DNA of 64,000 nt from Clostridiales bacterium (GCA_031265685.1 JAISCI010000045.1:15467-79466), one strand, 5' to 3'. Positions 1,159-64,000 are shown, counted from the stretch's first letter. Notes: generated from the sequence alone by a model not told the origin. Made by a program: numbers and translations.

Positions 1159-1297
1159 ATACTGTTTCGGGTTAGATAGTGACATTTGTTTTTAAGAGCG
1201 ATAGCGCGTTCGCGCGGCTTTGAAGTTTGCGTGAACCAAGCAAACTTCAGAGGCGCGAACCTTAAAAACAAATGTCAACCTTCATTCCGAAACAGTG

Positions 1298-1298: not shown

Positions 1299-3536
<2,238 letters not shown>

Positions 3537-4724
3537 TTATATTTTGTCCGCGCCCAGAACGTCCATCAGCGGCTCGCGCGTCTTCTTGCGCGTAACCTCG
3601 ACCAGCCCGAGCGCCGTCATGCCGACCACGGTGGACGAGATCCGATCCCTCGCGAAAGCGCGGCTCAGTTCCGCCAGCAATTCGTCGCGGCTCTGCTTTT
3701 CGCGCATATCTATGAAATCGATTATAATTATCCCGCCAAGGTTGCGCAGCCGCGCCTGCCGCGCTATCTCGGCCGCCGCCTCCAGATTCAGCCGCAGCGC
3801 GGAGTATTCGTGATCCTTCCGCCCGGGAAAGCGCCCGCTGTTCACGTCGATAACCCAGCAAGCCTCCGTGCGCTCGATAACAAGGAACCCGCCCGAGGCG
3901 AGCCATACCTTCTTATCCAGCACGCGGCGCGTGTCGCGGCGCAGCCCCATATCGGCGATCAGGTCGCCGCTCGGGACGCAGCGCACGCGCCCTTCCGCGC
4001 CGTCAAAGTAGTCCCGGACGGCGGCTCGGGCGCGTTCGGCCTCGCTCTCGCTGTTGATAACGACCTCGCCGATCTCCGCGCTGAAAAGGTCGCGCAGATT
4101 CCGCGTCAGCGCGTCGTCGTCGCGCTCGATAACGCATGGCGTCCGGCGGTACCGCCAGCGTTTGTCCAGATTGTCCGCCCTTGCCAGCAGCGATTTGATT
4201 TCGGACGTCAGCTCGTCCGCGCCGCGCCCCTCGCAATTGGTGCGGATGATGACGTCGTATCCGACGGGCAGAACGCTCTCGGCGGCCGCCTTAAGCCGCG
4301 ACCGCTCGTCCTCGCGCGTTATCTTCCGCGACAGCGATACGCCCGCGCGATCATAGCCTGTATTAAAAAGTATGCACAGACGCCCCGAAAAAGACAACTG
4401 GGTCGTCAGATACGCGCCTTTATCGGCGGTTTCGTCCTTAACCACCTGAACGGCCAGCGTCGAGCCGGGCTTTATCGTCAGCCTGCCGTCGGGATCGTAC
4501 AGCCGCGATTCTTTGATGTCGTTGAGGAAGAGGAAGCCGTTGCGCGAAAGACCCACGTCCACGAAAGCGAACTGGCTCGGGAGAACGCTGCGGACGACCC
4601 CGGCGAAAATCGCGCCGACGGCGGAACGCGGCTCGCGCTCGTCGATCAGCAGCTCGACCAGTCCGCGGCCGTCCGTCACGGCGGTTCTTATCGTGTCGCC
4701 ACAGTCGATAATGATACGATTCAT
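3537..4724 (-). CDS. rng: Rne/Rng-family ribonuclease (RNase G-like)
   Basis: 395 aa. N-terminal S1-like segment (GAIFAGVVRSVLPSQFAFVDVG) followed by an RNase E/G core (WVIDVNSGRF..IIIIDFIDM). Confidence 0.85.
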   Translation of the reverse strand: MNRIIIDCGDTIRTAVTDGRGLVELLIDEREPRSAVGAIFAGVVRSVLPSQFAFVDVGLSRNGFLFLNDIKESRLYDPDGRLTIKPGSTLAVQVVKDETADKGAYLTTQLSFSGRLCILFNTGYDRAGVSLSRKITREDERSRLKAAAESVLPVGYDVIIRTNCEGRGADELTSEIKSLLARADNLDKRWRYRRTPCVIERDDDALTRNLRDLFSAEIGEVVINSESEAERARAAVRDYFDGAEGRVRCVPSGDLIADMGLRRDTRRVLDKKVWLASGGFLVIERTEACWVIDVNSGRFPGRKDHEYSALRLNLEAAAEIARQARLRNLGGIIIIDFIDMREKQSRDELLAELSRAFARDRISSTVVGMTALGLVEVTRKKTREPLMDVLGADKI

Positions 4725-12734: not shown

Positions 12735-12803
12735 GATTTTCGCCCGGATCACGCGAAAATTCTTGAGGTAATTTTCGCTTGGACCCGCGAAAATTCTTGA
12801 GGT
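12735..12803 (+). repeat. two tandem ~35-bp hairpin units in the V-ATPase 5' UTR
   Basis: GATTTTCGC-ccggatcac-GCGAAAATTCTTGAGGT followed by AATTTTCGC-ttggacccg-CGAAAATTCTTGAGGT. Same unit type as 63203-63268. Confidence 0.85.
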
Positions 12804-20613: not shown

Positions 20614-20662
20614 TTGGCTGGTGTAAATGTCAACTGAAAAATCACCCACCCAATATAATTGA

Positions 20663-20728
20663 AAAATCACCCACCCCCAAAACAAAGCGCGAGTTTAAGC
20701 GGTCTTCGTTTTGGGGGTGGGTGATTTT
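20663..20728 (+). terminator. large hairpin terminator after ntpB
   Basis: AAAATCACCCACCCCCAAAAC (20663-20683) pairs perfectly with GTTTTGGGGGTGGGTGATTTT (20708-20728), followed by AATTATAT. The left arm is also duplicated at 20636-20652. Confidence 0.65.
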
Positions 20729-20820
20729 AATTATATCGCTATGGTGATTTTTGGAGTAATAAATACAATACTCGGTCGAACCTTGCAGCCTGCGGCAAGG
20801 CTTGGCTGGGTGTGACTTTA

Positions 20821-20955
20821 GAACCTGTATTCATAGATGCAATCGACGTCTTTTCGGCTGATTTCCCGTCGTTCTTTATCAGCCAAAAACTTGCGTACTC
20901 TCCCGGCGGAAAATCATCGCGGAAATCCGCCGATTCCACTAATGAATACAGGTTC
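20821..20955. mobile_element. MITE-like fold-back element, short copy (inverted relative to 3234-3536)
   Basis: Termini are GAACCTGTATTCAT (20821-20834) and ATGAATACAGGTTC (20942-20955). The reverse complement is collinear with both ends of 3234-3536 but lacks the inserted modules. Confidence 0.8.
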
Positions 20956-20982
20956 TTAATTTGGATGTAGCGTAAAGTGCAA

Positions 20983-22030: not shown

Positions 22031-22840
22031 ATGCCGCAGAATTTCCCGTTTCCTCTGACGGTCGGCGCAACTGTCGCCGCCGTTTACGAACGTCCCGACG
22101 CGTCGTCTAAGCGGGCGGATGAGCTGCCGCTAGGGTGGGGCGTAACGGCGCTGTCGTCGGAAGGCGGTTTTTATGGGATACGGACGCAATACGGCTACAA
22201 GGGATATGTCGCCGCCGCGGATCTGTCCGACTTCGGTCCCGCGCCGCGCGGCGCCGTCCGGCGGACGATAGCGCGCCTGTTCGGAGACGTCGTCGCGTAT
22301 CCCAATATAAAGTCGCCCGTGGCGTCGTCGCTGCCGATGGGCGCGGCTCTGTGGTGCCTTGGCGGCGAGGACGGTTTTACGCGGGTATCGGGCGAGCGCG
22401 GACTCGGCGGGTACGTCGCGGATACGTCCCTTGGCGGCGACGCCTACAGTCCTGTCGGCGACCCGGACGACTTCCGCTCGAGGGTGGTTAAGACGGCGTC
22501 GATGTTTCTCGGCGCTCCGTACCGATGGGGCGGGAAGACCGGCATGGGCGTGGACTGCTCGGGGCTGTGCTTTATGGCGTACTATATGAACGGCTGCGTC
22601 ATATGCCGCGACGCGCGTATGGATCCGAGTTTCCCGGTTCGGTCCGTCCCGCTCGACGAGGCGCGCATGGGGGATCTGCTGTATTTTCCCGGCCACGTGG
22701 CGATGTATCTGGGCGAAGGTAATTTTATCCATTCGTCCGTCAGAAACGGCGGCGTGGCGCTTAACTCGCTGTATCCCGAAAGCGGCTTTTACGCGCCCAA
22801 TCTGGCAGAGAGCCTTATTGTGTCTGGGACGATTTTCTAG
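22031..22840 (+). CDS. NlpC/P60 (C40) cell-wall peptidase with N-terminal SH3-like domains
   Basis: VDCSGLCFMAY (catalytic Cys) and PGHVAMYLGEGNFIHSS (His). ATG 22031 (MPQNFPF) is preferred to the ORF-track start 21986. Confidence 0.85.
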   Translation: MPQNFPFPLTVGATVAAVYERPDASSKRADELPLGWGVTALSSEGGFYGIRTQYGYKGYVAAADLSDFGPAPRGAVRRTIARLFGDVVAYPNIKSPVASSLPMGAALWCLGGEDGFTRVSGERGLGGYVADTSLGGDAYSPVGDPDDFRSRVVKTASMFLGAPYRWGGKTGMGVDCSGLCFMAYYMNGCVICRDARMDPSFPVRSVPLDEARMGDLLYFPGHVAMYLGEGNFIHSSVRNGGVALNSLYPESGFYAPNLAESLIVSGTIF

Positions 22841-22952
22841 GGGCGGCTTGCTTTCCGCGCCGGAACGACGCGCGACTTACGCGAATTCAAATCGCGTAGC
22901 TTGAATAACCGAAAAGCGATACAAGAAAAACGCGCGTCGCCTAAAGCCGCCC

Positions 22953-23109
22953 GCGAATTTTGCCTGGCGAATTTCGCGTCGCATTTTCGCGTGACAGAAG
23001 TTTGCGTGAATCGAAGCATTATCGTGTGGTTCAAACGATAATGCGATGCAAACTTCGTTCAAGCGAAAATGCTTCGTCCAAGCGAAATTCCTTCCCGCAG
23101 AATTCCGCG
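22953..23109. repeat. ~157-bp composite multi-unit palindrome of the hairpin family
   Basis: Centred on CATTATCGT-gtggttcaa-ACGATAATG (23017-23043). Successive arm pairs are GAAGTTTGC/GCAAACTTC, GCATTTTCGC/GCGAAAATGC, GAATTTCGC/GCGAAATTC and GCGAATTTTGC/GCAGAATTCCGC. Confidence 0.85.
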
Positions 23110-23508
23110 CTCAGAAATCCGGCGTATTAAACGCGCTGTCGTATGTCTTTGAGAACGGCTGTAAACGGATAACTTGCCGTCCGGATTTGACGACCGGCGT
23201 ACAGCTTGTACGCGACCAAACCGCTGGTCAAGGTCAGGTTTTTTTGTATATGCAAAAGATGGGAATGACACTAGTGAACGTCGTATTGTCTCTTTGGATT
23301 CCATCGGTATCAAAGTCCGTACTGCGACAAAGAGTCATATCAGTACCGCGGCCCAATCGGCGCCTTTTCCGCCGGATAATTTGTTTTATGTGGACGGGCC
23401 AAGCAAAAATACCGCCGCTCATATTTCGCCTGATATAACCGGCGGCGCGGGACTGTTTGAAAACAATATTCTCAACGAATGGACCGGGGCTGCGCGTCGC
23501 GCCGCCCA

Positions 23509-25131
23509 TCACCTGGTGTCCGCGATAGCAAGGCTCTGAATATACTTCCGCGGTGAAACCCCTACGACCTTCTTAAACACCTTGCTGAAATAAAACGCGT
23601 TCTCGAACCCCAATTTTTCGGCGATCTCGTATATCTTCCCGTTTCCCGAGAGCAGCATCTGCTTCGCGGTCTCGACGCGTATGTTCGTTATATACTCCAC
23701 GTATCCTTTCCCCGTGTACTTCGCGAACAACTGGGACAGATAATTCGGGCTGAAATTAAACACCGCCGCTACTTCGTTCAGACTCAGCCTCTTATTGAGA
23801 TTCGACGCTATGTAGTCCTGCACCCGCGCTATGATCTGCCGTCTGTAATTAAGCCGCCGCGCGGCCAGCGTGTCGCGGCACTCGTCGCGCAGCCGCGCCA
23901 GCCACGCCGTCACCTCGCGCGTCGCGCGCAAACGGTACAGTTTGCGGTAACCGTCCGGCTCGTCCCGGAAAACGCGGTCGATGAGCGCGGCGCCGTCCGT
24001 CATTGTGTTCATTATAAGGTAAAGTATATTCGACGCGGCGTCCACCGCGCCGACCAGCCGACCCGGACGCGTCTCGAAAAAGTCTATCACGCCGTTAACG
24101 GCTTCCTCCAGCAGTTCGGCGTTCGATTCGCGGAAAGCGCGCGTCATCTGGTCGCGAGCGGCGGCGAACGAGAACTCGTCCTCGACTATCTCACCGAACG
24201 GCGCGCCGTCCCAAGCGAATACGACCGGATGCCGCTCGTCGGCGGACGTCTCGCGCAAGACGGCGGAGGCGTAACTCTCGCGCAATTCAAACGGCTTGGC
24301 CGCGACCGTCCCCACCGACGCGCGCACGCTCACACCAAAGTAACTCTGCGCCATCTCGGCGGCGACAAGAAGAGCCTCCTCGAGCGGAACGCGCCACGAT
24401 TTCTCGTCGTCGGAACCCAGGCAGACGGCCGTTATAAAACGGCTCGGCTCGGCGTCCGGAAAAGTCGGGTAGCAGACGAACGACTTCGAGGCCGTCTCGC
24501 GGAACATCCTCGCGGCGCTTTCAAACAGCGCGTTAAGCTTGTCCGGGCGCATGTCGTCCCCGTTTTGGCTTCGCGACAGCGAACACGTGACGGCGCAGTA
24601 CGCGGTCGAGCTGAACTCGAGGCCAAGCTCGGCCCGGCGCGCCTCGAAGTCGGCCTCATCGTCGAACAGACCGTTATACAGCCGCGCGAAAAACTTCTCG
24701 CCGGATCCGCCCCGTCTCGTGGATACGTCCGGAAAGCCGCTCCAATTGTGCATCTCGAGAGTCTTTATGGCTTTTTCGACCGCCCCGGCCAAGCTCTCGG
24801 GCGTAAGCTCCAGTTTGATGAGGTAGTCGATCGCCTGAAGCTTAATCGCCTGATGAACATAATCGAACTCCTCATAGCTCGTGAGCATGATAAACAGAGG
24901 GACGCGCCCGTATTTTTCGGAGCATTCCCGCGCCAGATCGACGCCGCTTTTGACCGGCATTTTTATGTCGCTGATAACGATATGCGGACGCAGCTTCTCA
25001 ATAAGCTCGGCGGCCTGCCCGCCGTTCCGCGCGGTCGCGACCACCTCCACGCCCATATCCTCCCATTTAAGCATGGACGACACGCCCACGCACACGAGAG
25101 GTTCGTCGTCTACGATCATCAGTTTTACCAT
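23509..25131 (-). CDS. response regulator with AraC-type HTH (YesN-like)
   Basis: 540 aa. REC domain (KLMIVDDEP..VISDIKMP) plus a C-terminal AraC HTH (SLNEVAAVFNFSPNYLSQLFAKYTG..FENAFYFSKVFKK). Confidence 0.9.
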   Translation of the reverse strand: MVKLMIVDDEPLVCVGVSSMLKWEDMGVEVVATARNGGQAAELIEKLRPHIVISDIKMPVKSGVDLARECSEKYGRVPLFIMLTSYEEFDYVHQAIKLQAIDYLIKLELTPESLAGAVEKAIKTLEMHNWSGFPDVSTRRGGSGEKFFARLYNGLFDDEADFEARRAELGLEFSSTAYCAVTCSLSRSQNGDDMRPDKLNALFESAARMFRETASKSFVCYPTFPDAEPSRFITAVCLGSDDEKSWRVPLEEALLVAAEMAQSYFGVSVRASVGTVAAKPFELRESYASAVLRETSADERHPVVFAWDGAPFGEIVEDEFSFAAARDQMTRAFRESNAELLEEAVNGVIDFFETRPGRLVGAVDAASNILYLIMNTMTDGAALIDRVFRDEPDGYRKLYRLRATREVTAWLARLRDECRDTLAARRLNYRRQIIARVQDYIASNLNKRLSLNEVAAVFNFSPNYLSQLFAKYTGKGYVEYITNIRVETAKQMLLSGNGKIYEIAEKLGFENAFYFSKVFKKVVGVSPRKYIQSLAIADTR

Positions 25132-27155: not shown

Positions 27156-27629
27156 TTAATTGCTTATAATTTCCATAATTCCATAATAATCTGAATTGTA
27201 AGGTATACGCATCTTTCCGTACCGCAAGCGCGTTTCCTTGCCATTCTCATAGAGGAACCGCTCAAAATCCCGAGCGTCGGCGACCGCGCCTGCATCTTCA
27301 AGCATCGCGCAAATAACGCCCGATCCGACGCCCTTGGGAACGTCTATCTCAAAATCCCCGGCAGGCTGTTCGGACGCGGGCCGCGTCTCCGTCGGACCGG
27401 GCGCTTCGGACGGCGGAGCGGCGGTCGGTTCCGGCGTGGACACGATCGGCGCGAAAAACGGCGGATCCTCCGGGGACACCTCGACGGACACGATCGAGTC
27501 TTCCGTCGGCGCGGACACATCCGCTGACCGCCAGCCCGCCTTCTCCCGAGCGTACAAAAATCCGAACGCCGCGGACATAATCATAATACCCGCGCCCAGA
27601 CCGATCAGCGCGCTACGCATTGCCGTCAC
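27156..27629 (-). CDS. membrane-anchored hypothetical protein; C-terminal domain resembles the MltG/YceG N-terminal (LysM-like) domain
   Basis: 157 aa. N-terminal TM, Pro-rich linker, then IDVPKGVGSGVICAMLEDAGAVADARDFERFL..YGKMRIP. The domain resemblance is from memory only. Confidence 0.5.
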   Translation of the reverse strand: MTAMRSALIGLGAGIMIMSAAFGFLYAREKAGWRSADVSAPTEDSIVSVEVSPEDPPFFAPIVSTPEPTAAPPSEAPGPTETRPASEQPAGDFEIDVPKGVGSGVICAMLEDAGAVADARDFERFLYENGKETRLRYGKMRIPYNSDYYGIMEIISN

Positions 27630-28018: not shown

Positions 28019-28324
28019 TCACACCCTTATATCCACTATGCTCGAACTTTTGTACGCGGAGAGCGCGGCGGCGGCTTCCGGATTCTTTTTCTTCTTCTTG
28101 GCTCCGCCGAACGCTCCCGAGCCGTTACCGCGGCCGTCCGGGTTGGTCTGAGCGCCCTTATCCGATTCGCGCACAAAGCGCTCCGCGTGGACGGTTTCCT
28201 TATCCATCTGCCTGGCGAAATGCGCCTGTTGCATCCCCGCGCGCGACCCGTCCGCTCCCGAAGCGCGGTTCACCTCGTAAGAATTGCCCAGCGCCGCTTT
28301 CAGGTCTATCGGCCTCATCGACAT
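28019..28324 (-). CDS. hypothetical Gly/Lys-rich, probably disordered protein downstream of sigD
   Basis: ATG 28324 (MSMRPIDLKAALGN..) is preceded by SD GGAAAGGAG at 8 nt; the ORF track extends to 28345. No family recognised. Confidence 0.45.
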   Translation of the reverse strand: MSMRPIDLKAALGNSYEVNRASGADGSRAGMQQAHFARQMDKETVHAERFVRESDKGAQTNPDGRGNGSGAFGGAKKKKKNPEAAAALSAYKSSSIVDIRV

Positions 28325-28375
28325 GGCCAAAACTCCTTTCCTCATTCTGTCTGATTCTGTCTAACCCGAAACGTA

Positions 28376-30131: not shown

Positions 30132-30920
30132 TTACGAAAGCCCGAAGGAGCCGAGAAATAAATGGAAAGAGGACGGCTCCGGCACGAGAATAAAATAGCT
30201 GCGCGAACACGTCGCGCCGTCGCCGAAAACAGTCTCAATAAAAAGCGCCGAGTCGGCCACTTTTCCGAACTCGATCGCGGGTACCGAAAATACCGCCGCC
30301 GCCATATCCATCGTCAGCACAGGCACGCTTGGAAACACCTTGACGCCCGTCAGCTGGCCGAGCGCATTGAGGTATGCCGTTGAGAGGATGTTGCACATCT
30401 CGGTCAGGGCGGAAATATCCATATCGCTGAAGTCCCCTCTGAATTTCGCCCGGTTCAAAGAAATTTCGCCTGGCCGGATTTTGTTTGGCCGAATTCTGCT
30501 TGACTGAATTTTGCTTGACTGGATTTTGCTTGAATCACGCAAAATTCTTTCACTCAAAATTCTGTCACTCAAAATTCTGTCACGCGAAATTTCGGCGCAG
30601 AATTCATCGCCGTCCGGATCGGAAGCGTAGAGGTAGCGTATCAGAGTCCGAGCCTCGCCGGCCCTGATAATATAGAGGATCATCCCGGAGAGGTCGCCCG
30701 TTATCGTTACGAGCATACCGAACACCTGTTCCTCCGGGCCTCCCACCATAGCGGCGGCTTCCGCGAAGCCGAGCAGCCGGATGCGCGGAAGATGGATCAT
30801 AGCCTTGTCCGCGCCCAGCATCTTCGACAGCGCCGTGATCGCGTTGGAGCTTCCGATATTGCCCAGCTCCCGAAGCACGTCGAAATACAGCTCGCCGCCC
30901 GGCATGGTTGCTTTCATCAT
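30132..30920 (-). CDS. cheC: CheY-P phosphatase CheC carrying a 55-codon repeat-derived in-frame insert
   Basis: Both CheC active-site helices are present (DVLRELGN; SALTEMCN). At 262 aa it is longer than the ~210 aa usual for CheC, and the excess maps to 30441-30605. Confidence 0.85.
   Translation of the reverse strand: MMKATMPGGELYFDVLRELGNIGSSNAITALSKMLGADKAMIHLPRIRLLGFAEAAAMVGGPEEQVFGMLVTITGDLSGMILYIIRAGEARTLIRYLYASDPDGDEFCAEISRDRILSDRILSERILRDSSKIQSSKIQSSRIRPNKIRPGEISLNRAKFRGDFSDMDISALTEMCNILSTAYLNALGQLTGVKVFPSVPVLTMDMAAAVFSVPAIEFGKVADSALFIETVFGDGATCSRSYFILVPEPSSFHLFLGSFGLS
30441..30605. repeat. 165-bp multi-unit hairpin-family element inside cheC
   Basis: The left arm has six GAAWTTYGC-like units and the right arm five GCRAAWTTC-like units, centred on GATTTTGC-ttgaatcac-GCAAAATTC (30522-30547). 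Translated in the cheC frame it reads EFCAEISRDRILSDRILSERILRDSSKIQSSKIQSSRIRPNKIRPGEISLNRAKF. Confidence 0.9.
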
Positions 30921-37859: not shown

Positions 37860-38657
37860 CTATTTGAACGTTTTAACCAGGTTCTGTATAACAAGGTTCC
37901 AGCCGTCCACCATAACGAACAGCAAAACCTTAAAAGGCAGCGAGATCATCGCGGGGGGCAGCATCATCATGCCCATGGCCATCAGCGTGGACGCCACGAC
38001 CATATCAATCACGATGAACGGCATATAGATGTAGAAACCGAACCGGAACCCCTTTGTTATCTCCCCGACGACGAACGACGGCAGCAGCACCGAGTCGGGT
38101 ATGTCCTCGGGCCGCTCGAACGTCTCCCCCGCCAACGAGGCGAACATCGCTACGTCCTTAGTCTCCACCTGCCGCAGCATGAACGCCCGGATAGGTTCCA
38201 TGCCGCGCCCGACCGCTTCCTCCTGCGTTATCTCCCCCGCCGTAAAAGGTTTTATCGCCGTCTCGTTGACGGCGGACAGCGTCGGGGACATAACGAAGAA
38301 CGTTATGAACAGCGCCAGTCCGATGAGTATCTGATTCGGGGGCATCTGCTGCGTGCCGAGCGCCGACCGGACGAAGTGCAACGCGATTATAACGCGCGTA
38401 AAGCTCGTAAACAGCAGCAGTATAAACGGCGCGATCGAGATGACCGCCAGCACGAGCAGCACCTGCAGGCTCGAGACGGTCTCAGCCGGCGTTTCGGCTT
38501 CCGATACGTTTATGGATACGTTCGGCAGCGGAGCGGCGAGCGCCTCCGCCCGCGACGCAAGCAGCGCCGCCAGCAGCAGGATGGCAAACACCGCCGCGAA
38601 CGCCGCGCGTCTGCTTAAGGTAATTCCGCGCGAACCAGGCGAAATTCTTATTTTCAT
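37860..38657 (-). CDS. fliP: flagellar export apparatus protein FliP
   Basis: 265 aa. Signal-like N-terminus, then FTSFTRVIIALHFVRSALGTQQMPPNQ typical of FliP. Confidence 0.95.
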   Translation of the reverse strand: MKIRISPGSRGITLSRRAAFAAVFAILLLAALLASRAEALAAPLPNVSINVSEAETPAETVSSLQVLLVLAVISIAPFILLLFTSFTRVIIALHFVRSALGTQQMPPNQILIGLALFITFFVMSPTLSAVNETAIKPFTAGEITQEEAVGRGMEPIRAFMLRQVETKDVAMFASLAGETFERPEDIPDSVLLPSFVVGEITKGFRFGFYIYMPFIVIDMVVASTLMAMGMMMLPPAMISLPFKVLLFVMVDGWNLVIQNLVKTFK

Positions 38658-40486: not shown

Positions 40487-40498
40487 GGTTATCCCTCC

Positions 40499-40640
40499 TA
40501 TACTGTTTCAGAATTAAGGCTGGCGTTTGTTTTGCAAGGTTCGCGCCTATGAAGTTCACTTGGATGAATTTTGCGTGATTCAAGCAAAATTCTGTCACGC
40601 CTTGAAAACAAATGTCACTGTTTGACCTTAAACAGTATTA
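40499..40640. repeat. fold-back element at the fliM|fliY junction
   Basis: TATACTGTTTCAG (40499-40511) pairs with AAACAGTATTA (40630-40640, includes the fliM stop). Inner arms are GTTTGTTTTGCAAGG and CCTTGAAAACAAATG. Core is GAATTTTGC-gtgattcaa-GCAAAATTC at 40566-40592. Confidence 0.85.
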
Positions 40641-41612: not shown

Positions 41613-41639
41613 ATCTTACGACCCTTTCCGACCGCTGAT

Positions 41640-41666
41640 ACTGATTCCGTTTAGAACGGAATCAGT
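41640..41666. repeat. minimal hairpin (terminal arms only) at the fliL|fliM junction
   Basis: ACTGATTCCGTT-tag-AACGGAATCAGT, a 12-bp perfect stem that abuts the fliL stop (41667). The arms match those of 47056-47243. Confidence 0.8.
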
Positions 41667-42159: not shown

Positions 42160-42324
42160 CTAATCCCGTTTTAGAGTACAGACAATATTTTTCAAGTCCG
42201 CGCCTTAACCAAGGTCATTTTCGCGTGACAGAAGTTTGCCTGGTTCACGCAAACTTCATCCATACGAAAATTCATTGCGCGCGCCGCTTTGAAAAATCTT
42301 GTCCGCTGATTTAATCGGGATTAG
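42160..42324. repeat. fold-back element at the motB|fliL junction (TAATCC-type termini)
   Basis: CTAATCCCG (42160-42168) pairs with CGGGATTAG (42316-42324). Inner arms are ATATTTTTCAAG and TTGAAAAAT. Core is GAAGTTTGC-ctggttcac-GCAAACTTC at 42231-42257. The right arm lies inside the last motB codons. Confidence 0.85.
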
Positions 42325-45204: not shown

Positions 45205-45764
45205 ACCGCTTCCGCCTCCCCCGTCTGTTCCGCCGTGTCCGCCGCCTGTTCCGGCTCGTCAGCCGTCTTTTCCGGCTCGTAAGCCGTCTTTTCCGGCTCG
45301 TAAGCCGTCTTCCCGGAACCGCCGATTATATCGGCCAGTTCCTGGTCGAATATATACACCACGTCGGACAAGCTGATCTCCGACCCGCCGACCACGAGAT
45401 ACGGCGTATTGTTCCTCATCGACACCGCGTCCACGCGCCCGCCGACCGAATAGACAGTCCCCGTAACCGTGTCGGCTACGTCCGCCGCGATATACTTTCC
45501 GATCATCGCGAACGACTGGGAGCTGACCATGGCGGCGTTCATGTTCTGCATCTGCTCCAGCGCCGAGAACTGCGCCATCTGCGCGATAAACGTCTTATCG
45601 TCCGTCGGGTTCAGCGGGTCCTGATACTGAAGCTGCGTCACGAGCAGCCGCAGGAAGTCGTCCTTGCCCAGATCGTTTCCCGTTTTGGCCGCCGTCCGGC
45701 CCGTCTCCGCCAGCCCGGGCGCGTATGTCCCGACGAGCGCCGAATTCGTTAGCGTTTCCGCCAT
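45201..45764 (-). CDS. flgD: flagellar hook assembly (capping) protein FlgD
   Basis: 187 aa with FLRLLVTQLQYQDPLNP and FIAQMAQFSALEQMQNMN motifs. The C-terminal tail carries 7-aa repeats. Confidence 0.9.
   Translation of the reverse strand: MAETLTNSALVGTYAPGLAETGRTAAKTGNDLGKDDFLRLLVTQLQYQDPLNPTDDKTFIAQMAQFSALEQMQNMNAAMVSSQSFAMIGKYIAADVADTVTGTVYSVGGRVDAVSMRNNTPYLVVGGSEISLSDVVYIFDQELADIIGGSGKTAYEPEKTAYEPEKTADEPEQAADTAEQTGEAEAV
45249..45311. repeat. 3 x 21-bp tandem repeat in the flgD 3' end
   Basis: TTCCGGCTCGT(C/A)AGCCGTCTT three times in a row. It encodes KTAYEPE/KTAYEPE/KTADEPE in the flgD frame. Confidence 0.9.
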
Positions 45765-47035: not shown

Positions 47036-47055
47036 AGCGCCACATCCTTGTCTGT

Positions 47056-47243
47056 TATACTGATTCCATTTTGATCGACGTTTGATGTTGTCTTAGACAA
47101 CATCAAGCCGTCTTCTTGAAGGACGCCGAATATTTTTTCGGTCCGCGCCTGAAGCCGCGCGGTGGAAGTTTGCGTGGACCAAACAAACTTCCGACGCGCA
47201 AGCTCGAAAAAATATTCGGCACAAATCTAAATGGAATCAGTAT
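47056..47243. repeat. fold-back element at the ylxF-like|fliK junction (longest flagellar copy)
   Basis: TATACTGATTCCATTT (47056-47071) pairs with AAATGGAATCAGTAT (47229-47243). Palindrome GATGTTGTC-tta-GACAACATC lies at 47084-47104. Inner arms are CCGAATATTTTTTCGG and CGAAAAAATATTCGG. Core is GGAAGTTTGC-gtggaccaa-ACAAACTTCC at 47164-47192. Confidence 0.85.
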
Positions 47244-48480: not shown

Positions 48481-48605
48481 TAATCCTATTTAGATTTGTA
48501 GATAAAATTTTTCAAGCGTCCGCGCGGTTTTGAAGTTTGCTTGGTTCACGCAAACTTCTCAGGCGCGGACTGGAAAATTTTTATCCGTCCTTTAGAATAG
48601 GATTA
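48481..48605. repeat. fold-back element at the fliI|fliJ junction (TAATCC-type termini)
   Basis: TAATCCTATT (48481-48490) pairs with AATAGGATTA (48596-48605). Inner arms are AAAATTTTTCAAG and GGAAAATTTTT. Core is GAAGTTTGC-ttggttcac-GCAAACTTC at 48532-48558. The right 25 nt lie inside the fliI 3' end. Confidence 0.85.
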
Positions 48606-53308: not shown

Positions 53309-53323
53309 CCCGTATTACGATTC

Positions 53324-53473
53324 ATACTGTTTCAGAAGTAAGGTTGACATTCGCTTTTAAGGTTCGCGACCATGAAGTCCGCGTGGACGAAGTTCACGTG
53401 AACCACGCAAAATTCCGTCACGCGAAAATTACCTTCTTAAAAACAAGTATCACTGTCTGAGCTGAAACAGTAT
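53324..53473. repeat. fold-back element at the fliE|fliF junction
   Basis: ATACTGTTTCAG (53324-53335) pairs with CTGAAACAGTAT (53462-53473). Inner arms are GACATTCGCTTTTAAGG and CCTTCTTAAAAACAAGTATC. The centre contains degenerate core units (GAAGTTCAC-gtgaaccac-GCAAAATTC). Confidence 0.85.
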
Positions 53474-53474
53474 C

Positions 53475-53780: not shown

Positions 53781-53798
53781 TCAGATCAGTCCTTTCGT

Positions 53799-53895
53799 TA
53801 TACCGTTTCAGGATTAAGGCTGACATTTGTTTTTAAGGTTCACGCGAAAATTACCTTCTTAAAAACAAATGCCGCCGTACAACCTGAAACAGTAT
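53799..53895. repeat. fold-back element at the flgC|fliE junction (no core module)
   Basis: TATACCGTTTCAGG (53799-53812) pairs with CCTGAAACAGTAT (53883-53895). Inner arms are GACATTTGTTTTTAAGG and CCTTCTTAAAAACAAATG. The right end overlaps the flgC stop. Confidence 0.85.
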
Positions 53896-61656: not shown

Positions 61657-61766
61657 TGTCGCCCTCCCAAAATAATGATTGAGTTTTTTTACCCATGTGA
61701 TATTATAATACTAGCTCGTTGGTTTTACAAAGAAAATTTTGTGATTGTCGAAAATAAGGAGATAAC

Positions 61767-62411
61767 TTGGTGAATAATGGCGAAAAAGATGCCGCGATCG
61801 CCGAATACGCGCTGAAAATGGCGCGGCTCGCCTTGCTGGGGGCGGTCGGCGCGGCTCTGGAGACGCGCGGGTCGGATGGGGAAGCGGAGCGTTTTATCGC
61901 CCGCGCCGCGAAGGAGTTCGCGGACGAACTGAAGCCCCGGACACATGATCCGGGGCTTTCGGAAGAACTGCTCGCCGAAGCGCGCGGGCTTCGCGAGTCT
62001 CTTATAAAACGCGCCGGAGAGAACGGAGCGGACGACGCGGTCACCCTCGCCCACGAGGGGCTTTGCTGCGTCTCATGCGCCGCGGCGTTCATGCCCGAGG
62101 GCGGCCCGGCGGAACTGTTCGAGGACGATATGCTGGGGCGCGACGCGCTGTCGGCCTACGCCGAAAACAGCGGCGACAGTCTCGAGCTGTTCGCGGAGAC
62201 GATCGCGGAGCGCGTCTCCGGGCTTTTTGAGAAAGGTCTGGACGAAGCGGGAGAGCTGCGCCGGTCCATAGAGAGGTCCGGTACGAAAGGCTCGGCGCTT
62301 TCCGGCGCGTTCGCCGCCGTCAACGCGATTTTTTTCGAGAACCTTACGGAGCTTATTGGACTTCCCGCAACCCCCGTTCAGGAGATTGCGGAAAGTCCCC
62401 GGGGAGTTTGA
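61767..62411 (+). CDS. hypothetical acidic, predicted helical protein
   Basis: 214 aa. TTG/GTG start 7-10 nt after SD AAGGAG. No family recognised; codon usage resembles neighbours. Confidence 0.5.
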   Translation: MVNNGEKDAAIAEYALKMARLALLGAVGAALETRGSDGEAERFIARAAKEFADELKPRTHDPGLSEELLAEARGLRESLIKRAGENGADDAVTLAHEGLCCVSCAAAFMPEGGPAELFEDDMLGRDALSAYAENSGDSLELFAETIAERVSGLFEKGLDEAGELRRSIERSGTKGSALSGAFAAVNAIFFENLTELIGLPATPVQEIAESPRGV

Positions 62412-62465: not shown

Positions 62466-63122
62466 CTATTGCCGGGGCTTCCGTCCGCCCGACAGCGCCT
62501 TGACGACGATCAGCACGGACAGCGCGATGAGCGCGGCGGCCGCCGCGAACCTGCCCCACCCCAGCATCATGCTGTTAAAGATCATGGAGCCGCCCGCCGC
62601 TACGAATCCAGCGCCGGCATAGAGCGCCCACTTGCCGATTCGGCCGCGGGCGAGAAGGTACGCCGTGGCGAACCCCAGACCGACGGCGACGAACAGCGAC
62701 TCGAAGCCGGGCAGGGGCAAACGCGCCTCCAGCGTGAAGGCGTATACCCCGAACCACGCGAGGAGCGACGCGGGCAGGATCAAAGCCTCCCGGCCCTTAA
62801 GCCACGCCATCGCGAGCAGCATACACGCCGTGAAGACAAACAGCGATGACATCCAGAAGCTAACGCGTATCGCGAAAAAACCGGCGGCTATGTCCCACGA
62901 GCGGTTGAGGGCGTACCACATCAGATACGTGCCGGCGACGAGCGCCCATGTTTTTCGGCGGGCGCCAAAAGTGAAACAGAGCGCCAGTCCGGCCGCGAGG
63001 AACATAAGCGGCGACAGATTGATACCGACGCTTGGCATCAGCAGCGACGCGCCGATGATGAACAGCGTCACGGCCAGCGCGATCTGGCCAAGTTTTGAGT
63101 TCATGCAGATCCCTTCGCTCAT
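62466..63122 (-). CDS. hypothetical polytopic membrane protein
   Basis: About 6-7 hydrophobic helices. The ATG at 63104 (MNSKLGQIAL) has the better SD (GAAGGGA). No family recognised. Confidence 0.55.
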   Translation of the reverse strand: MSEGICMNSKLGQIALAVTLFIIGASLLMPSVGINLSPLMFLAAGLALCFTFGARRKTWALVAGTYLMWYALNRSWDIAAGFFAIRVSFWMSSLFVFTACMLLAMAWLKGREALILPASLLAWFGVYAFTLEARLPLPGFESLFVAVGLGFATAYLLARGRIGKWALYAGAGFVAAGGSMIFNSMMLGWGRFAAAAALIALSVLIVVKALSGGRKPRQ

Positions 63123-63185: not shown

Positions 63186-64000
63186 ATGGATGACATTATG
63201 GAGGCAATTTCGCGTGAACCAAGCGAAATTCTTAAGGCAATTTCGCGTGAACCAGGCGAAATTCTTATCGAAATCACGGACATAGGATCGGAGGGCGAGG
63301 GGATCGGCCGGCTTGACGGACTGGCGGTGTTCGTGCCGGGCGGTTTCCCGGGGGACGCCGTCCGCGCGCGGATAACGTCGCGGCGTTCAGGGTTCGCGCG
63401 GGCGGAGATGACGGGGATAGTCCGCCCGTCCGCCGACAGGGTTCCGCCGATATGCGCTAACGCCCGCTGCGGCGGCTGTCCGCTTTCGGGCTTTTCGTAC
63501 TCGGCGCAGCTCCGCTTCAAGCGTAAACGCGCCGCCGACGCCCTCGTCCGGATCGGAGGGGCGGATGGCTTCGTCTGGGACGAGACCGCGCCGTCGGAAC
63601 CCGATCTGCCCTGCCGCTGGAAGGCTTCTTTCGGGGTATCGCGCGGACGGGTCGGTTTCGCGGCGCGCGGGAGCCGCGATATTGTCGAGCCGGCGGACTG
63701 CCCGGTTATCCAGCCGGCCCACCACGCGGTATTGGAAGCGGTTCGCGCCGATATACCCGGATGGCTTCGCGGGCTTATCGTCCGCGTCAGCTCCGTTTCG
63801 GGCGAGACGTCCGTCACGCTTGTCTCGCGGGAAGCCGACCCGGACGCGTCCGCGGTCGTTTCCGCGCTGTCCGCGGCGGGCGCGTCCCAGATCGCCCTTG
63901 CCGTCAACGCGGACGAATCCTCCCCGGCGAACGCGGCGGAGGGTCTGCCGCGCCGCGTTATATACGGAAGGAACTATATCACCGAGCGGATCGGCGGGGT
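63186..64000 (+). CDS. rlmD: 23S rRNA (uracil-5-)-methyltransferase RlmD/RumA family; 3' end cut by window edge
   Basis: Manual translation from ATG 63186 (SD GGAGGG 5 nt upstream): MDDIMEAISREPSEILKAISREPGEILIEITDIGSEGEGIGRLDGLAVFVPGGFPGDAVRARIT (TRAM domain), then C..CGGC Fe-S cysteines. Absent from the ORF track because it is open at the edge. Confidence 0.8.
   Translation, partial: MDDIMEAISREPSEILKAISREPGEILIEITDIGSEGEGIGRLDGLAVFVPGGFPGDAVRARITSRRSGFARAEMTGIVRPSADRVPPICANARCGGCPLSGFSYSAQLRFKRKRAADALVRIGGADGFVWDETAPSEPDLPCRWKASFGVSRGRVGFAARGSRDIVEPADCPVIQPAHHAVLEAVRADIPGWLRGLIVRVSSVSGETSVTLVSREADPDASAVVSALSAAGASQIALAVNADESSPANAAEGLPRRVIYGRNYITERIGG
63203..63268 (+). repeat. 2 x 33-bp tandem hairpin units inside the rlmD 5' coding end
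   Basis: GGCAATTTCGC-gtgaaccaa-GCGAAATTCTTAA followed by GGCAATTTCGC-gtgaaccag-GCGAAATTCTTAT. Each unit is 11 codons (AISREPSEILK / AISREPGEILI). Confidence 0.9.

Follow-up and report, generated by a model that had tools for sequence, protein, structure and literature searches.

The DNA analysed here, a stretch of 64,000 nucleotides that we call the window, comes from the chromosome of an uncultured Clostridiales gut bacterium and has a GC content of ~61%. It carries genes for an FGGY kinase, luxS, IMP dehydrogenase, RNase G, galactose genes and a V-type ATPase operon; genes for an LD-carboxypeptidase, an NlpC/P60 protein and a YesM/YesN-type two-component pair; a ~26-kb fla/che operon on the minus strand (flgB to sigD); and purine genes, leucyl-tRNA synthetase and RlmD. 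The NlpC/P60 gene ends at 22840 and the convergent gene for a YesN-like regulator ends at 23509. Between them lies a 157-bp compound palindrome that folds as one long hairpin (-44.3 kcal/mol as single-stranded DNA, z = -5.3). The first-pass annotation of this DNA had proposed at least four stacked stem pairs at this locus, and we find five nested pairs, four of them perfect (Table 1). It had also listed related hairpins elsewhere in the window, for which every coordinate and sequence proved correct, and had put the total at about 17 loci, close to the ~15 that we count.

Table 1. Palindromic repeats in the window, with their positions, strands and settings.
Feature	Position	Strand	Setting or remark
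Compound palindrome, five pairs, four of them perfect	22953..23109		between convergent genes
Pair 1 of 22953-23109	22955-63 / 23097-105		one mismatch
Pair 2 of 22953-23109	22969-77 / 23082-90		perfect
Pair 3 of 22953-23109	22981-90 / 23063-72		perfect
Pair 4 of 22953-23109	22997-23005 / 23048-56		perfect
Pair 5 of 22953-23109, innermost, GCATTATCGT-GTGGTTCAA-ACGATAATGC	23016-25 / 23035-44		perfect
Three-layer compound palindrome, homologous to 22981-23072	3361..3450		inner module CGAAGCATTATCGTGTGGTTCAAACGATAATGCGATGCAAA in common
Array, five units on one arm and six on the other	30432..30602	-	in frame in CheC
Single hairpin GAAGTTTGC-GTGAACCAA-GCAAACTTC	1222..1248		shortly after the luxS stop codon
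Two tandem hairpins of the AATTTTCGC subfamily, period 35, each with flank CTTGAGGT	12735..12795		upstream of the V-ATPase operon
Degenerate copy, two differences	38621..38647	-	fliP codons 3-12 (MKIRISPGSRGI...)
Single perfect hairpin GAATTTTGC-GTGATTCAA-GCAAAATTC with a one-sided outer unit	40566..40592		fliM-fliY gap
Two layers: outer CATTTTCGC imperfect, inner GAAGTTTGC perfect, loop intact	42216..42272		motB-fliL gap
Hairpin with one uncompensated C.A mismatch	47165..47191		gap upstream of fliK
Perfect GAAGTTTGC hairpin within a GTCCGCGC/GCGCGGAC layer	48532..48558		fliI-fliJ gap
Decayed two-layer element, three and four uncompensated differences	53374..53430		fliE-fliF gap
Two tandem hairpins of the AATTTCGC subfamily, period 33	63203..63268	+	in frame in RlmD

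Structure of the repeat

The core of the repeat spans ~27-31 bp and is a near-complete palindrome, (AT)GAAWTTYGC-G-TG-NNN-CA-A-GCRAAWTTC(AT). A search for the core as TTYGCNTGNNNCANGCRAA with at most one mismatch gave 10 matches in the window, compared with 0.03 ± 0.17 in shuffled sequence. Every stem varies a single GAAWTTYGC theme and none is an arbitrary sequence; the stems are A/T-rich, whereas the genome has ~61% GC. The first-pass annotation had placed a 9-nt loop with the consensus GTGRWYCAA between the stem halves. This segment, GTGAACCAA, is not a loop: a G.A mismatch is followed by T-A and G-C pairs and then by a 3-nt apex, so that most of it is paired and the true apex is a triloop. 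When the loops are read as GTG...CAA, 10 copies have AAC as their centre triplet and five have its reverse complement, GTT. The sole constant asymmetry is a G on one arm against a T on the other, which gives a G.A mismatch on one strand and T.C on the other and is retained in nearly all layers and copies.

Copies are arranged as single hairpins, as tandem whole hairpins and as nested stacks, and the core hairpin is usually the innermost part of a larger nested intergenic palindrome. The array unit of ~15 nt consists of a 9-10-nt stem and a 6-nt spacer (GAAWTTYGC + KTGRNN); units are arrayed directly on one arm and inverted on the opposite arm, with spacers that are GTGACA-like on one arm and TTGACT/TTGAAC-like on the other. 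Each nested layer adds ~15 nt per arm, ~30 nt in total, and repeats the G.A mismatch. Near-identical copies occur at unrelated loci: those at 1222 and 48532 share both the core and a GC-rich layer, GTYCGCGCC...GCGCGRAC, and the left arm of the element in the motB-fliL gap is identical to 22982-23005.

Distribution within the window

Twelve of the ~15 loci are intergenic, though intergenic DNA makes up a small share of the window, and they lie mostly in the gaps of housekeeping operons. Within the fla/che operon, copies occupy the fliE-fliF, flgC-fliE, fliI-fliJ, motB-fliL and fliM-fliY gaps and the gap upstream of fliK. Relative to transcription, five copies point one way and seven the other, with no bias. 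The fla/che gaps are built in four layers. Outermost is an inverted repeat (ACTGTTTCNG...CNGAAACAGTAT) that has the stop codon directly to one side of it and the next ribosome-binding site to the other; inside it come a second layer (TGACATTTGTTTTTAAGG...CCTTAAAAACAAATGTCA), a GC-rich third and, as the fourth, the core hairpin. The whole fliE-fliF spacer folds at -55.7 kcal/mol (z = -4.6), and the decayed element listed for this gap is the core of a 166-nt intergenic palindrome. Similarly, the hairpin upstream of fliK is enclosed by GC-rich and A/T-rich outer palindromic layers, and the one downstream of luxS is the innermost layer of a ~135-bp nested palindrome filling most of the 1145-1297 gap. 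The three-layer palindrome at 3361-3450, which has one uncompensated mismatch in its middle layer, sits within a 305-bp MITE-like element (3233-3537).

An outer repeat of the form ACTG(T/A)TTC...GAA(A/T)CAGTAT is common to the fla/che spacers and the luxS region, at 1145-1297, 40487-40637, 53309-53474, 53781-53894, 47036-47242 and 41613-41641. At the last of these sites a minimal 29-bp version, ACTGATTCC-GTTCTAAAC-GGAATCAGT, stands alone.

Pairing and covariation of the stem arms

According to the first-pass annotation, the two halves of each stem always change together. We tabulated 35 stem pairs, 26 from the window and nine from two related contigs described below (L002 and L003). Pairing is perfect in 17, with one difference in a further 12 and two or more in six; imperfect examples include 3376/3427, 47165/47183, 38621/38639 and the layers at 30441-30605 and 53374-53430. 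"Always" is an overstatement, but matching is far above chance, as shuffling the partners yielded 4.15 ± 1.68 perfect pairs and a maximum of 12 in 10,000 shuffles. Seven distinct stems are perfectly paired (GAATTTTGC, GAAGTTTGC, GAATTTCGC, AATTTTCGC, GCATTTTCGC, GAAATTTCGC and GCATTATCGT), and these variants include compensated single-base insertions.

The covariation itself is real. When 21 single hairpins are aligned, 88.8% of the cells are paired, a share that falls to 23-52% in slid controls, and changes on both sides are seen in 7 of 12 pairs. The covariation score of 0.258 compares with 0.126 ± 0.021 in shuffles and was reached by none of 500. The best evidence comes from a homologous two-layer composite present in three copies (3376-3435 and 22997-23056 in the window and 1388-1446 in L003), all of which share the irregular junctions GC-GTGRWYCGAA-inner-GAT-GC. 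The outer stem of this composite is GAATTTCGC/GCAAAATTC at 3376-3435, GAAGTTTGC/GCAAACTTC at 22997-23056 and GAATTTTGC/GCAAAATTC in L003. For the inner stem, the window has GCATTATCGT/ACGATAATGC and L003 has GCATTTTTGC/GCAAAATGC, a difference of two compensated doubles and one bulge, so that compensated double substitutions are found in both helices.

By a hand count over the 35-pair table, uncompensated differences (~20) exceed the minimum number of compensated events (~9). Perfect copies beside decayed ones fit descent from a few palindromic masters followed by uncompensated decay, and many stems that look independent may trace to a few such masters within the ~78 kb of family-carrying DNA studied. 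This scenario, which the annotation had named as one that would overturn its proposal, partly fits, but compensated double changes do exist. Together with the covariation, these changes indicate that something acts on the hairpin itself, as the annotation had argued; the duplex operator that it had set aside becomes only less likely.

This last possibility, in which the repeats would be arrays of duplex binding sites for a dimeric protein (a nucleoid-associated protein, a global regulator or a site-specific recombinase) and the 12-3-12 palindrome one dyad site, strikes us as very improbable: all stems are variants of one theme (GAAWTTYGC KTG), the dyad symmetry has a 3-nt centre, the arrays keep a regular 15-nt phase and the 9-N9-9 layout recalls the CIRCE/HrcA operator, but partner halves fit each other better than they fit the family consensus, seven perfect stems including a compensated indel are not what independent half-site recognition predicts, copies occur within ORFs and at the 3' ends of genes and not at promoters, the neighbours are unrelated housekeeping genes and there is no regulator or recombinase gene nearby. 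The known CodY, ARG box, Fur, Rex, LexA, parS and sigma-54 motifs differ from the repeats in spacing or sequence.

Copies inside genes

The lengths of the in-gene copies, of the 27-nt core and of the 30-nt layer are all multiples of three; cores and layers of these sizes keep the reading frame, and some insertions therefore survive inside genes. The ORF of CheC (30132-30920, minus strand) encodes 262 aa against 200-214 aa in all 40 homologues found. A single 57-residue insert, encoded exactly by the array of Table 1, is absent from 40 of 40 homologues in the alignment and reads as 5-residue repeats (RDRIL SDRIL SERIL RDSSK IQSSK IQSSR...). The extra unit on one arm of this array is unpaired. 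The nearest CheC homologue is ~60% identical, and the contigs carrying the closest homologues (L006 and L007, 37-38% GC) hold no hairpin copies.

In RlmD, an ATG at 63186 with the ribosome-binding site GGAGGG ahead of it is followed immediately by 66 nt of tandem hairpins, which encode EAISREPSEILKAISREPGEIL before the conserved N-terminus; the protein is identical to MDR1209438.1. The CheC insert, which the homologues lack, and the N-terminal copies in RlmD and FliP are in-frame palindromic inserts in conserved genes, as in RPE-type elements.

Related sequences elsewhere

Across one genome per species (185,579 species), the strict core pattern matched only in two contigs, L002, which is binned as Oscillospiraceae and has three copies in 5.4 kb, and L003, which is binned as Treponema and has at least five copies in 8 kb. 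The isolate codes of the corresponding MAGs (Nm470 and Gx481) look like those of termite-gut samples. The two contigs are phage-like and encode a PAPS reductase, Siphovirus Gp157 and a portal protein. The PAPS reductase gene of L002 contains an in-frame copy of 27 nt directly after the GCIGCP motif, and this copy brings in a TGA stop; another copy, 40 nt further downstream, causes a +1 frameshift (L002 2770-2880). Phage homologues read straight through this region. Given the stop and the frameshift, the gene is either inactive or in need of correction, or the contig contains an assembly error. In L003, the portal gene and one other ORF have in-frame copies in their C-terminal tails.

Searches of JGI metagenomes and IMG/VR with the strict core pattern returned no copies, and a looser pattern returned just three unrelated perfect palindromes from metagenomes. 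When the translated arrays were compared with 5.8 billion proteins, only the window's own CheC and RlmD matched. Exact-protein look-ups recovered only short Logan contigs of the same organism (L001, L004 and L005), which cover the same region and add no new sequence. An assembly or library artefact was rejected because the independent Logan assembly has the identical CheC insert (P0001, L005), and it is further countered by the diversity, nesting and in-frame placement of the copies.

The three Logan contigs, from SRR14710922, end at or near palindromes; L004 stops ~158 nt past the NlpC/P60 gene, inside 22953-23109. The repeats evidently fragment assemblies.

Filled and empty sites

Several sites in the window occur both with and without the repeat. 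The module TTGATGTTGTCTTAGACAACATCAAGCC (TTGATCGACGTTTGATGTTGTCTTAGACAACATCAAGCC) lacks the array at 47071-47106 and carries it at 3452-3490, where the junction reads ACA-TC[TGAATTTTGC...GCAAAATTCA]TC-AAGCC; the same filled junction of module and array is present in L003. The outer palindrome, too, has an empty site, at 41613-41641, and a filled one, at 47036-47242. These filled and empty sites within the window are paralogous. A MITE-like element with the ends AGAACCTGTATTCA/TGAATACAGGTTCT occurs as a 137-bp copy at 20820-20956 and as the 305-bp copy at 3233-3537, and the longer one has extra modules that include the module just described with its hairpin array, and a 29-bp insert.

A possible target-site duplication, the 2-bp TC, is seen at one junction only. 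Across eight nested junctions there is no consistent target-site duplication, and no conserved target sequence flanks the copies. Two specific insertion models were rejected: duplication of the central triplet (27 + 3 = 30 nt), for which both the direct and the inverted version misfit at the eight nested junctions, and an IS200/IS605-like fixed 5' target, because the left flanks vary.

A perfect palindrome, TTGATGTTGTC-TTA-GACAACATCAA, is found at 47071-47106 and 3452-3490 with the conserved flanks TTGATCGACGTTT... and ...GCCNTCTTCTT, and in diverged form at 1366-1386 of the phage-like contig L003. Of the three copies of this palindrome, two have the hairpin array attached at the 3' foot.

Discussion

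We think it probable that these hairpins are very small palindromic DNA repeats, non-autonomous and making up one family of the REP/MITE/RPE type, which has spread through the chromosome and through related phage-like DNA. The evidence favours a DNA-level repeat element over a functional RNA, as there is no orientation bias, copies lie in ORFs and in phage-like contigs and no Rfam family matches. The repeat family with its enrichment, covariation and nesting, its in-frame insertions and its filled and empty paralogous sites are shown here, while active transposition, recognition of the hairpin as single-stranded DNA and the nature of a putative enzyme are inferred. To propagate, the repeat would have to adopt the hairpin form, probably as extruded or single-stranded DNA, and an enzyme from another part of the genome would recognise it. 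Pfam scans of the 64-kb window found no transposase, HUH/Y1 enzyme or recombinase. Only lineages with complementary arms would continue to spread, which would explain why there are several perfectly paired stem variants, and inserted copies would decay afterwards through uncompensated mutation. The conserved G.A / T.C asymmetry would serve to tell the strands apart. Such mismatches distinguish strands in the folded single-stranded DNA systems attC/IntI, IS200/IS605 and REP/RAYT.

How the layers arose may be read in two ways. The arithmetic favours nested insertion, given 27-nt hairpins, 30-nt layers and layers that match free-standing subfamilies. The extra unit in CheC and the one-layer difference between the window and L003 composites favour duplication of a unit followed by mirroring.

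If the repeat-family reading is right, the elements would rank among the smallest palindromic repeats reported to propagate themselves, would come from the Firmicutes, a group with few studies of REP-like families, and would offer a clean natural case in which covariation of a DNA stem arises from selection on propagation and not from RNA function. The spacers of a tightly packed flagellar operon can evidently fill with nested hairpins, and conserved CheC, RlmD and FliP provide a case outside Rickettsia of palindromic DNA surviving in frame. In practical terms, such repeats break short-read assemblies and produce spurious N-terminal extensions and insertions in protein annotations.

A more specific proposal, which we regard as unlikely, is that the hairpin represents an undescribed kind of minimal mobile DNA, a 27-nt palindrome acting as a folded strand, with the G.A mismatch as its strand mark, that inserts preferentially into the apex or foot of existing hairpins and so builds nested layers. 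Its lengths (27, 33 and +30 nt) would have been selected as codon-compatible, allowing it to colonise chromosomal and phage ORFs, and its enzyme would be new or repurposed.

Most of the repeats lie within the fla/che operon and between co-directional genes and are thus transcribed, and their stems covary, as would be expected if they were cis-acting RNA hairpins of long operons that are kept by selection on RNA pairing, whether as mRNA stabilisers, as RNase processing sites or as devices that fold the spacer and bring the upstream stop codon beside the downstream ribosome-binding site. Indeed, whole intergenic regions fold into one long hairpin that joins stop and start, fliE-fliF being the example given above. 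We nevertheless consider this quite unlikely. The two orientations (5 versus 7) would give RNAs with either a G.A or a U.C mismatch and with either loop; copies also sit in coding sequence, between convergent genes (22953-23109) and inside phage ORFs; and many are decayed. Rfam returned no match for the whole window at gathering thresholds and none in 22700-23600 at E <= 1, and a dispersed DNA repeat would in any case be transcribed and fold. The tRNA/tmRNA scan found none. Intrinsic terminators, in which a G+C-rich stem precedes a T tract, were rejected separately, as a terminator scan of 40-55 kb reported no core hairpin and the elements lie inside a long operon.

The retained asymmetry also bears on the idea that the palindromes arose in place through replication errors, with fold-back or template-switch synthesis and slippage of 15-nt units copying one arm onto the other. 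The G.A / T.C difference would not outlast fold-back copying, yet it is kept nearly throughout, and this persistence argues against simple fold-back copying and for a recognised feature. The core is moreover found at more than 15 unrelated loci and in other genomes, for which dispersal is necessary, and the layers of the stacks correspond to subfamilies that also stand free. Errors made in place would suit the arms that are exact mirror images, as many are, the unpaired extra unit of the 30441-30605 array, which looks like slippage, the composite in the window, which equals that of L003 plus one symmetric 15+15-nt layer with identical outer junctions, and the lack of target-site duplications; on balance we judge this origin decidedly unlikely.

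Comparison with known elements

As a dispersed DNA repeat, the family resembles REP, BIME and REPIN sequences, which are likewise imperfect palindromes of 20-40 bp in many, mostly extragenic copies, lie between co-directional or convergent genes, occur singly or clustered into larger hairpins and fall into sequence subfamilies. The general definition of a REP describes what we find: a core of 27-31 bp at ~15 loci in 64 kb, 12 of them intergenic, with 10 core matches where 0.03 are expected. REPs also have occasional intragenic copies (PMC3733652), and their hallmark is a GTAG or CGTC tetranucleotide that stays unpaired at one end (PMC3733652). The 3-nt flanks of the 21 aligned hairpins are variable and contain no GTAG/CTAC or CGTC/GACG, and for want of this tag we do not file the family as REP. 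It differs further in its nested stacks with 15-nt layers, as opposed to head-to-head dimers, in its Firmicute host and in its A/T-rich stems, those of REPs being G+C-rich. REPs are mobilised by RAYT transposases, Y1/HUH TnpA-like enzymes whose genes typically have the repeats on either side; Pfam scans found no RAYT gene among the ORFs of the 64-kb window.

Rickettsia palindromic elements, reportedly described by Ogata et al. in 2000, are selfish palindromes that lie in frame in protein genes, are translated as extra segments and are tolerated in loops and termini, much like the in-gene copies here. RPEs, however, measure ~100-150 bp, are not known outside Rickettsia and have unrelated sequences, whereas the present elements have a 27-nt core, grow in 30-nt steps and are mostly intergenic.

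Bacterial MITEs, nested ones included, are known from families such as Correia/CREE, ERIC, RUP and Nezha (PMC10969869). The likeness lies in being non-autonomous, palindromic, intergenic, co-transcribed, sometimes nested and sometimes present in phage or mobile DNA. MITEs, however, have terminal inverted repeats matching those of a parent IS and clear target-site duplications. The elements described here are much smaller, the whole element is itself an inverted repeat, and the TC noted above is the one possible duplication.

Recognition of integron attC sites as folded single-stranded DNA is established. They share with our hairpins a conserved structure, stems that vary and co-vary in sequence and conserved unpaired or mismatched positions that could mark one strand. 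They differ in that the hairpins have no R''/L''/L'/R' boxes, no cassette array and no intI, and are dispersed; the alignment of 21 hairpins contains no GTTRRRY or RYYYAAC box, and the window encodes no integrase. The HrcA-bound CIRCE operator (TTAGCACTC-N9-GAGTGCTAA) has the same 9-N9-9 inverted-repeat geometry with an unrelated sequence, whereas the present repeats have many copies, some in ORFs, with varying stems and none upstream of groES/dnaK. The family is not attC, CIRCE, an intrinsic terminator or any Rfam family. What is unusual about it is that 15-nt layers are nested, that its sizes are codon-compatible and that it has spread into phage-like DNA.

Other features of the window

Directly adjoining the 157-bp palindrome is an unrelated nested palindrome of ~112 bp (22841-22952), which begins immediately past the NlpC/P60 stop codon and has a folding energy of -35 kcal/mol (z = -4.4). 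It consists of a GGGCGGCTT/AAGCCGCCC layer followed by CGACGCGCG/CGCGCGTCG and TACGCGA/TCGCGTA, and it may be the terminator of the NlpC/P60 gene.

Five ORFs are without a Pfam match (27156-27629, 28019-28345, 61703-62092, 61767-62411 and 62466-63122). The lowest GC content in the window, 0.52, is that of the 28-30 kb stretch around sigD.

Downstream of the V-ATPase operon, at 20640-20730, is a perfect 21-bp inverted repeat (AAAATCACCCACCCCCAAAAC / GTTTTGGGGGTGGGTGATTTT) with an extra direct partial copy, AAAATCACCCACCCA, just upstream of it. The terminator scan also reported a 21-nt tandem duplication in the flgD coding region at 45252-45286 (CGGCTCGTCAGCCGTCTTTTC / CGGCTCGTAAGCCGTCTTTTC), each copy of which contains a small hairpin.
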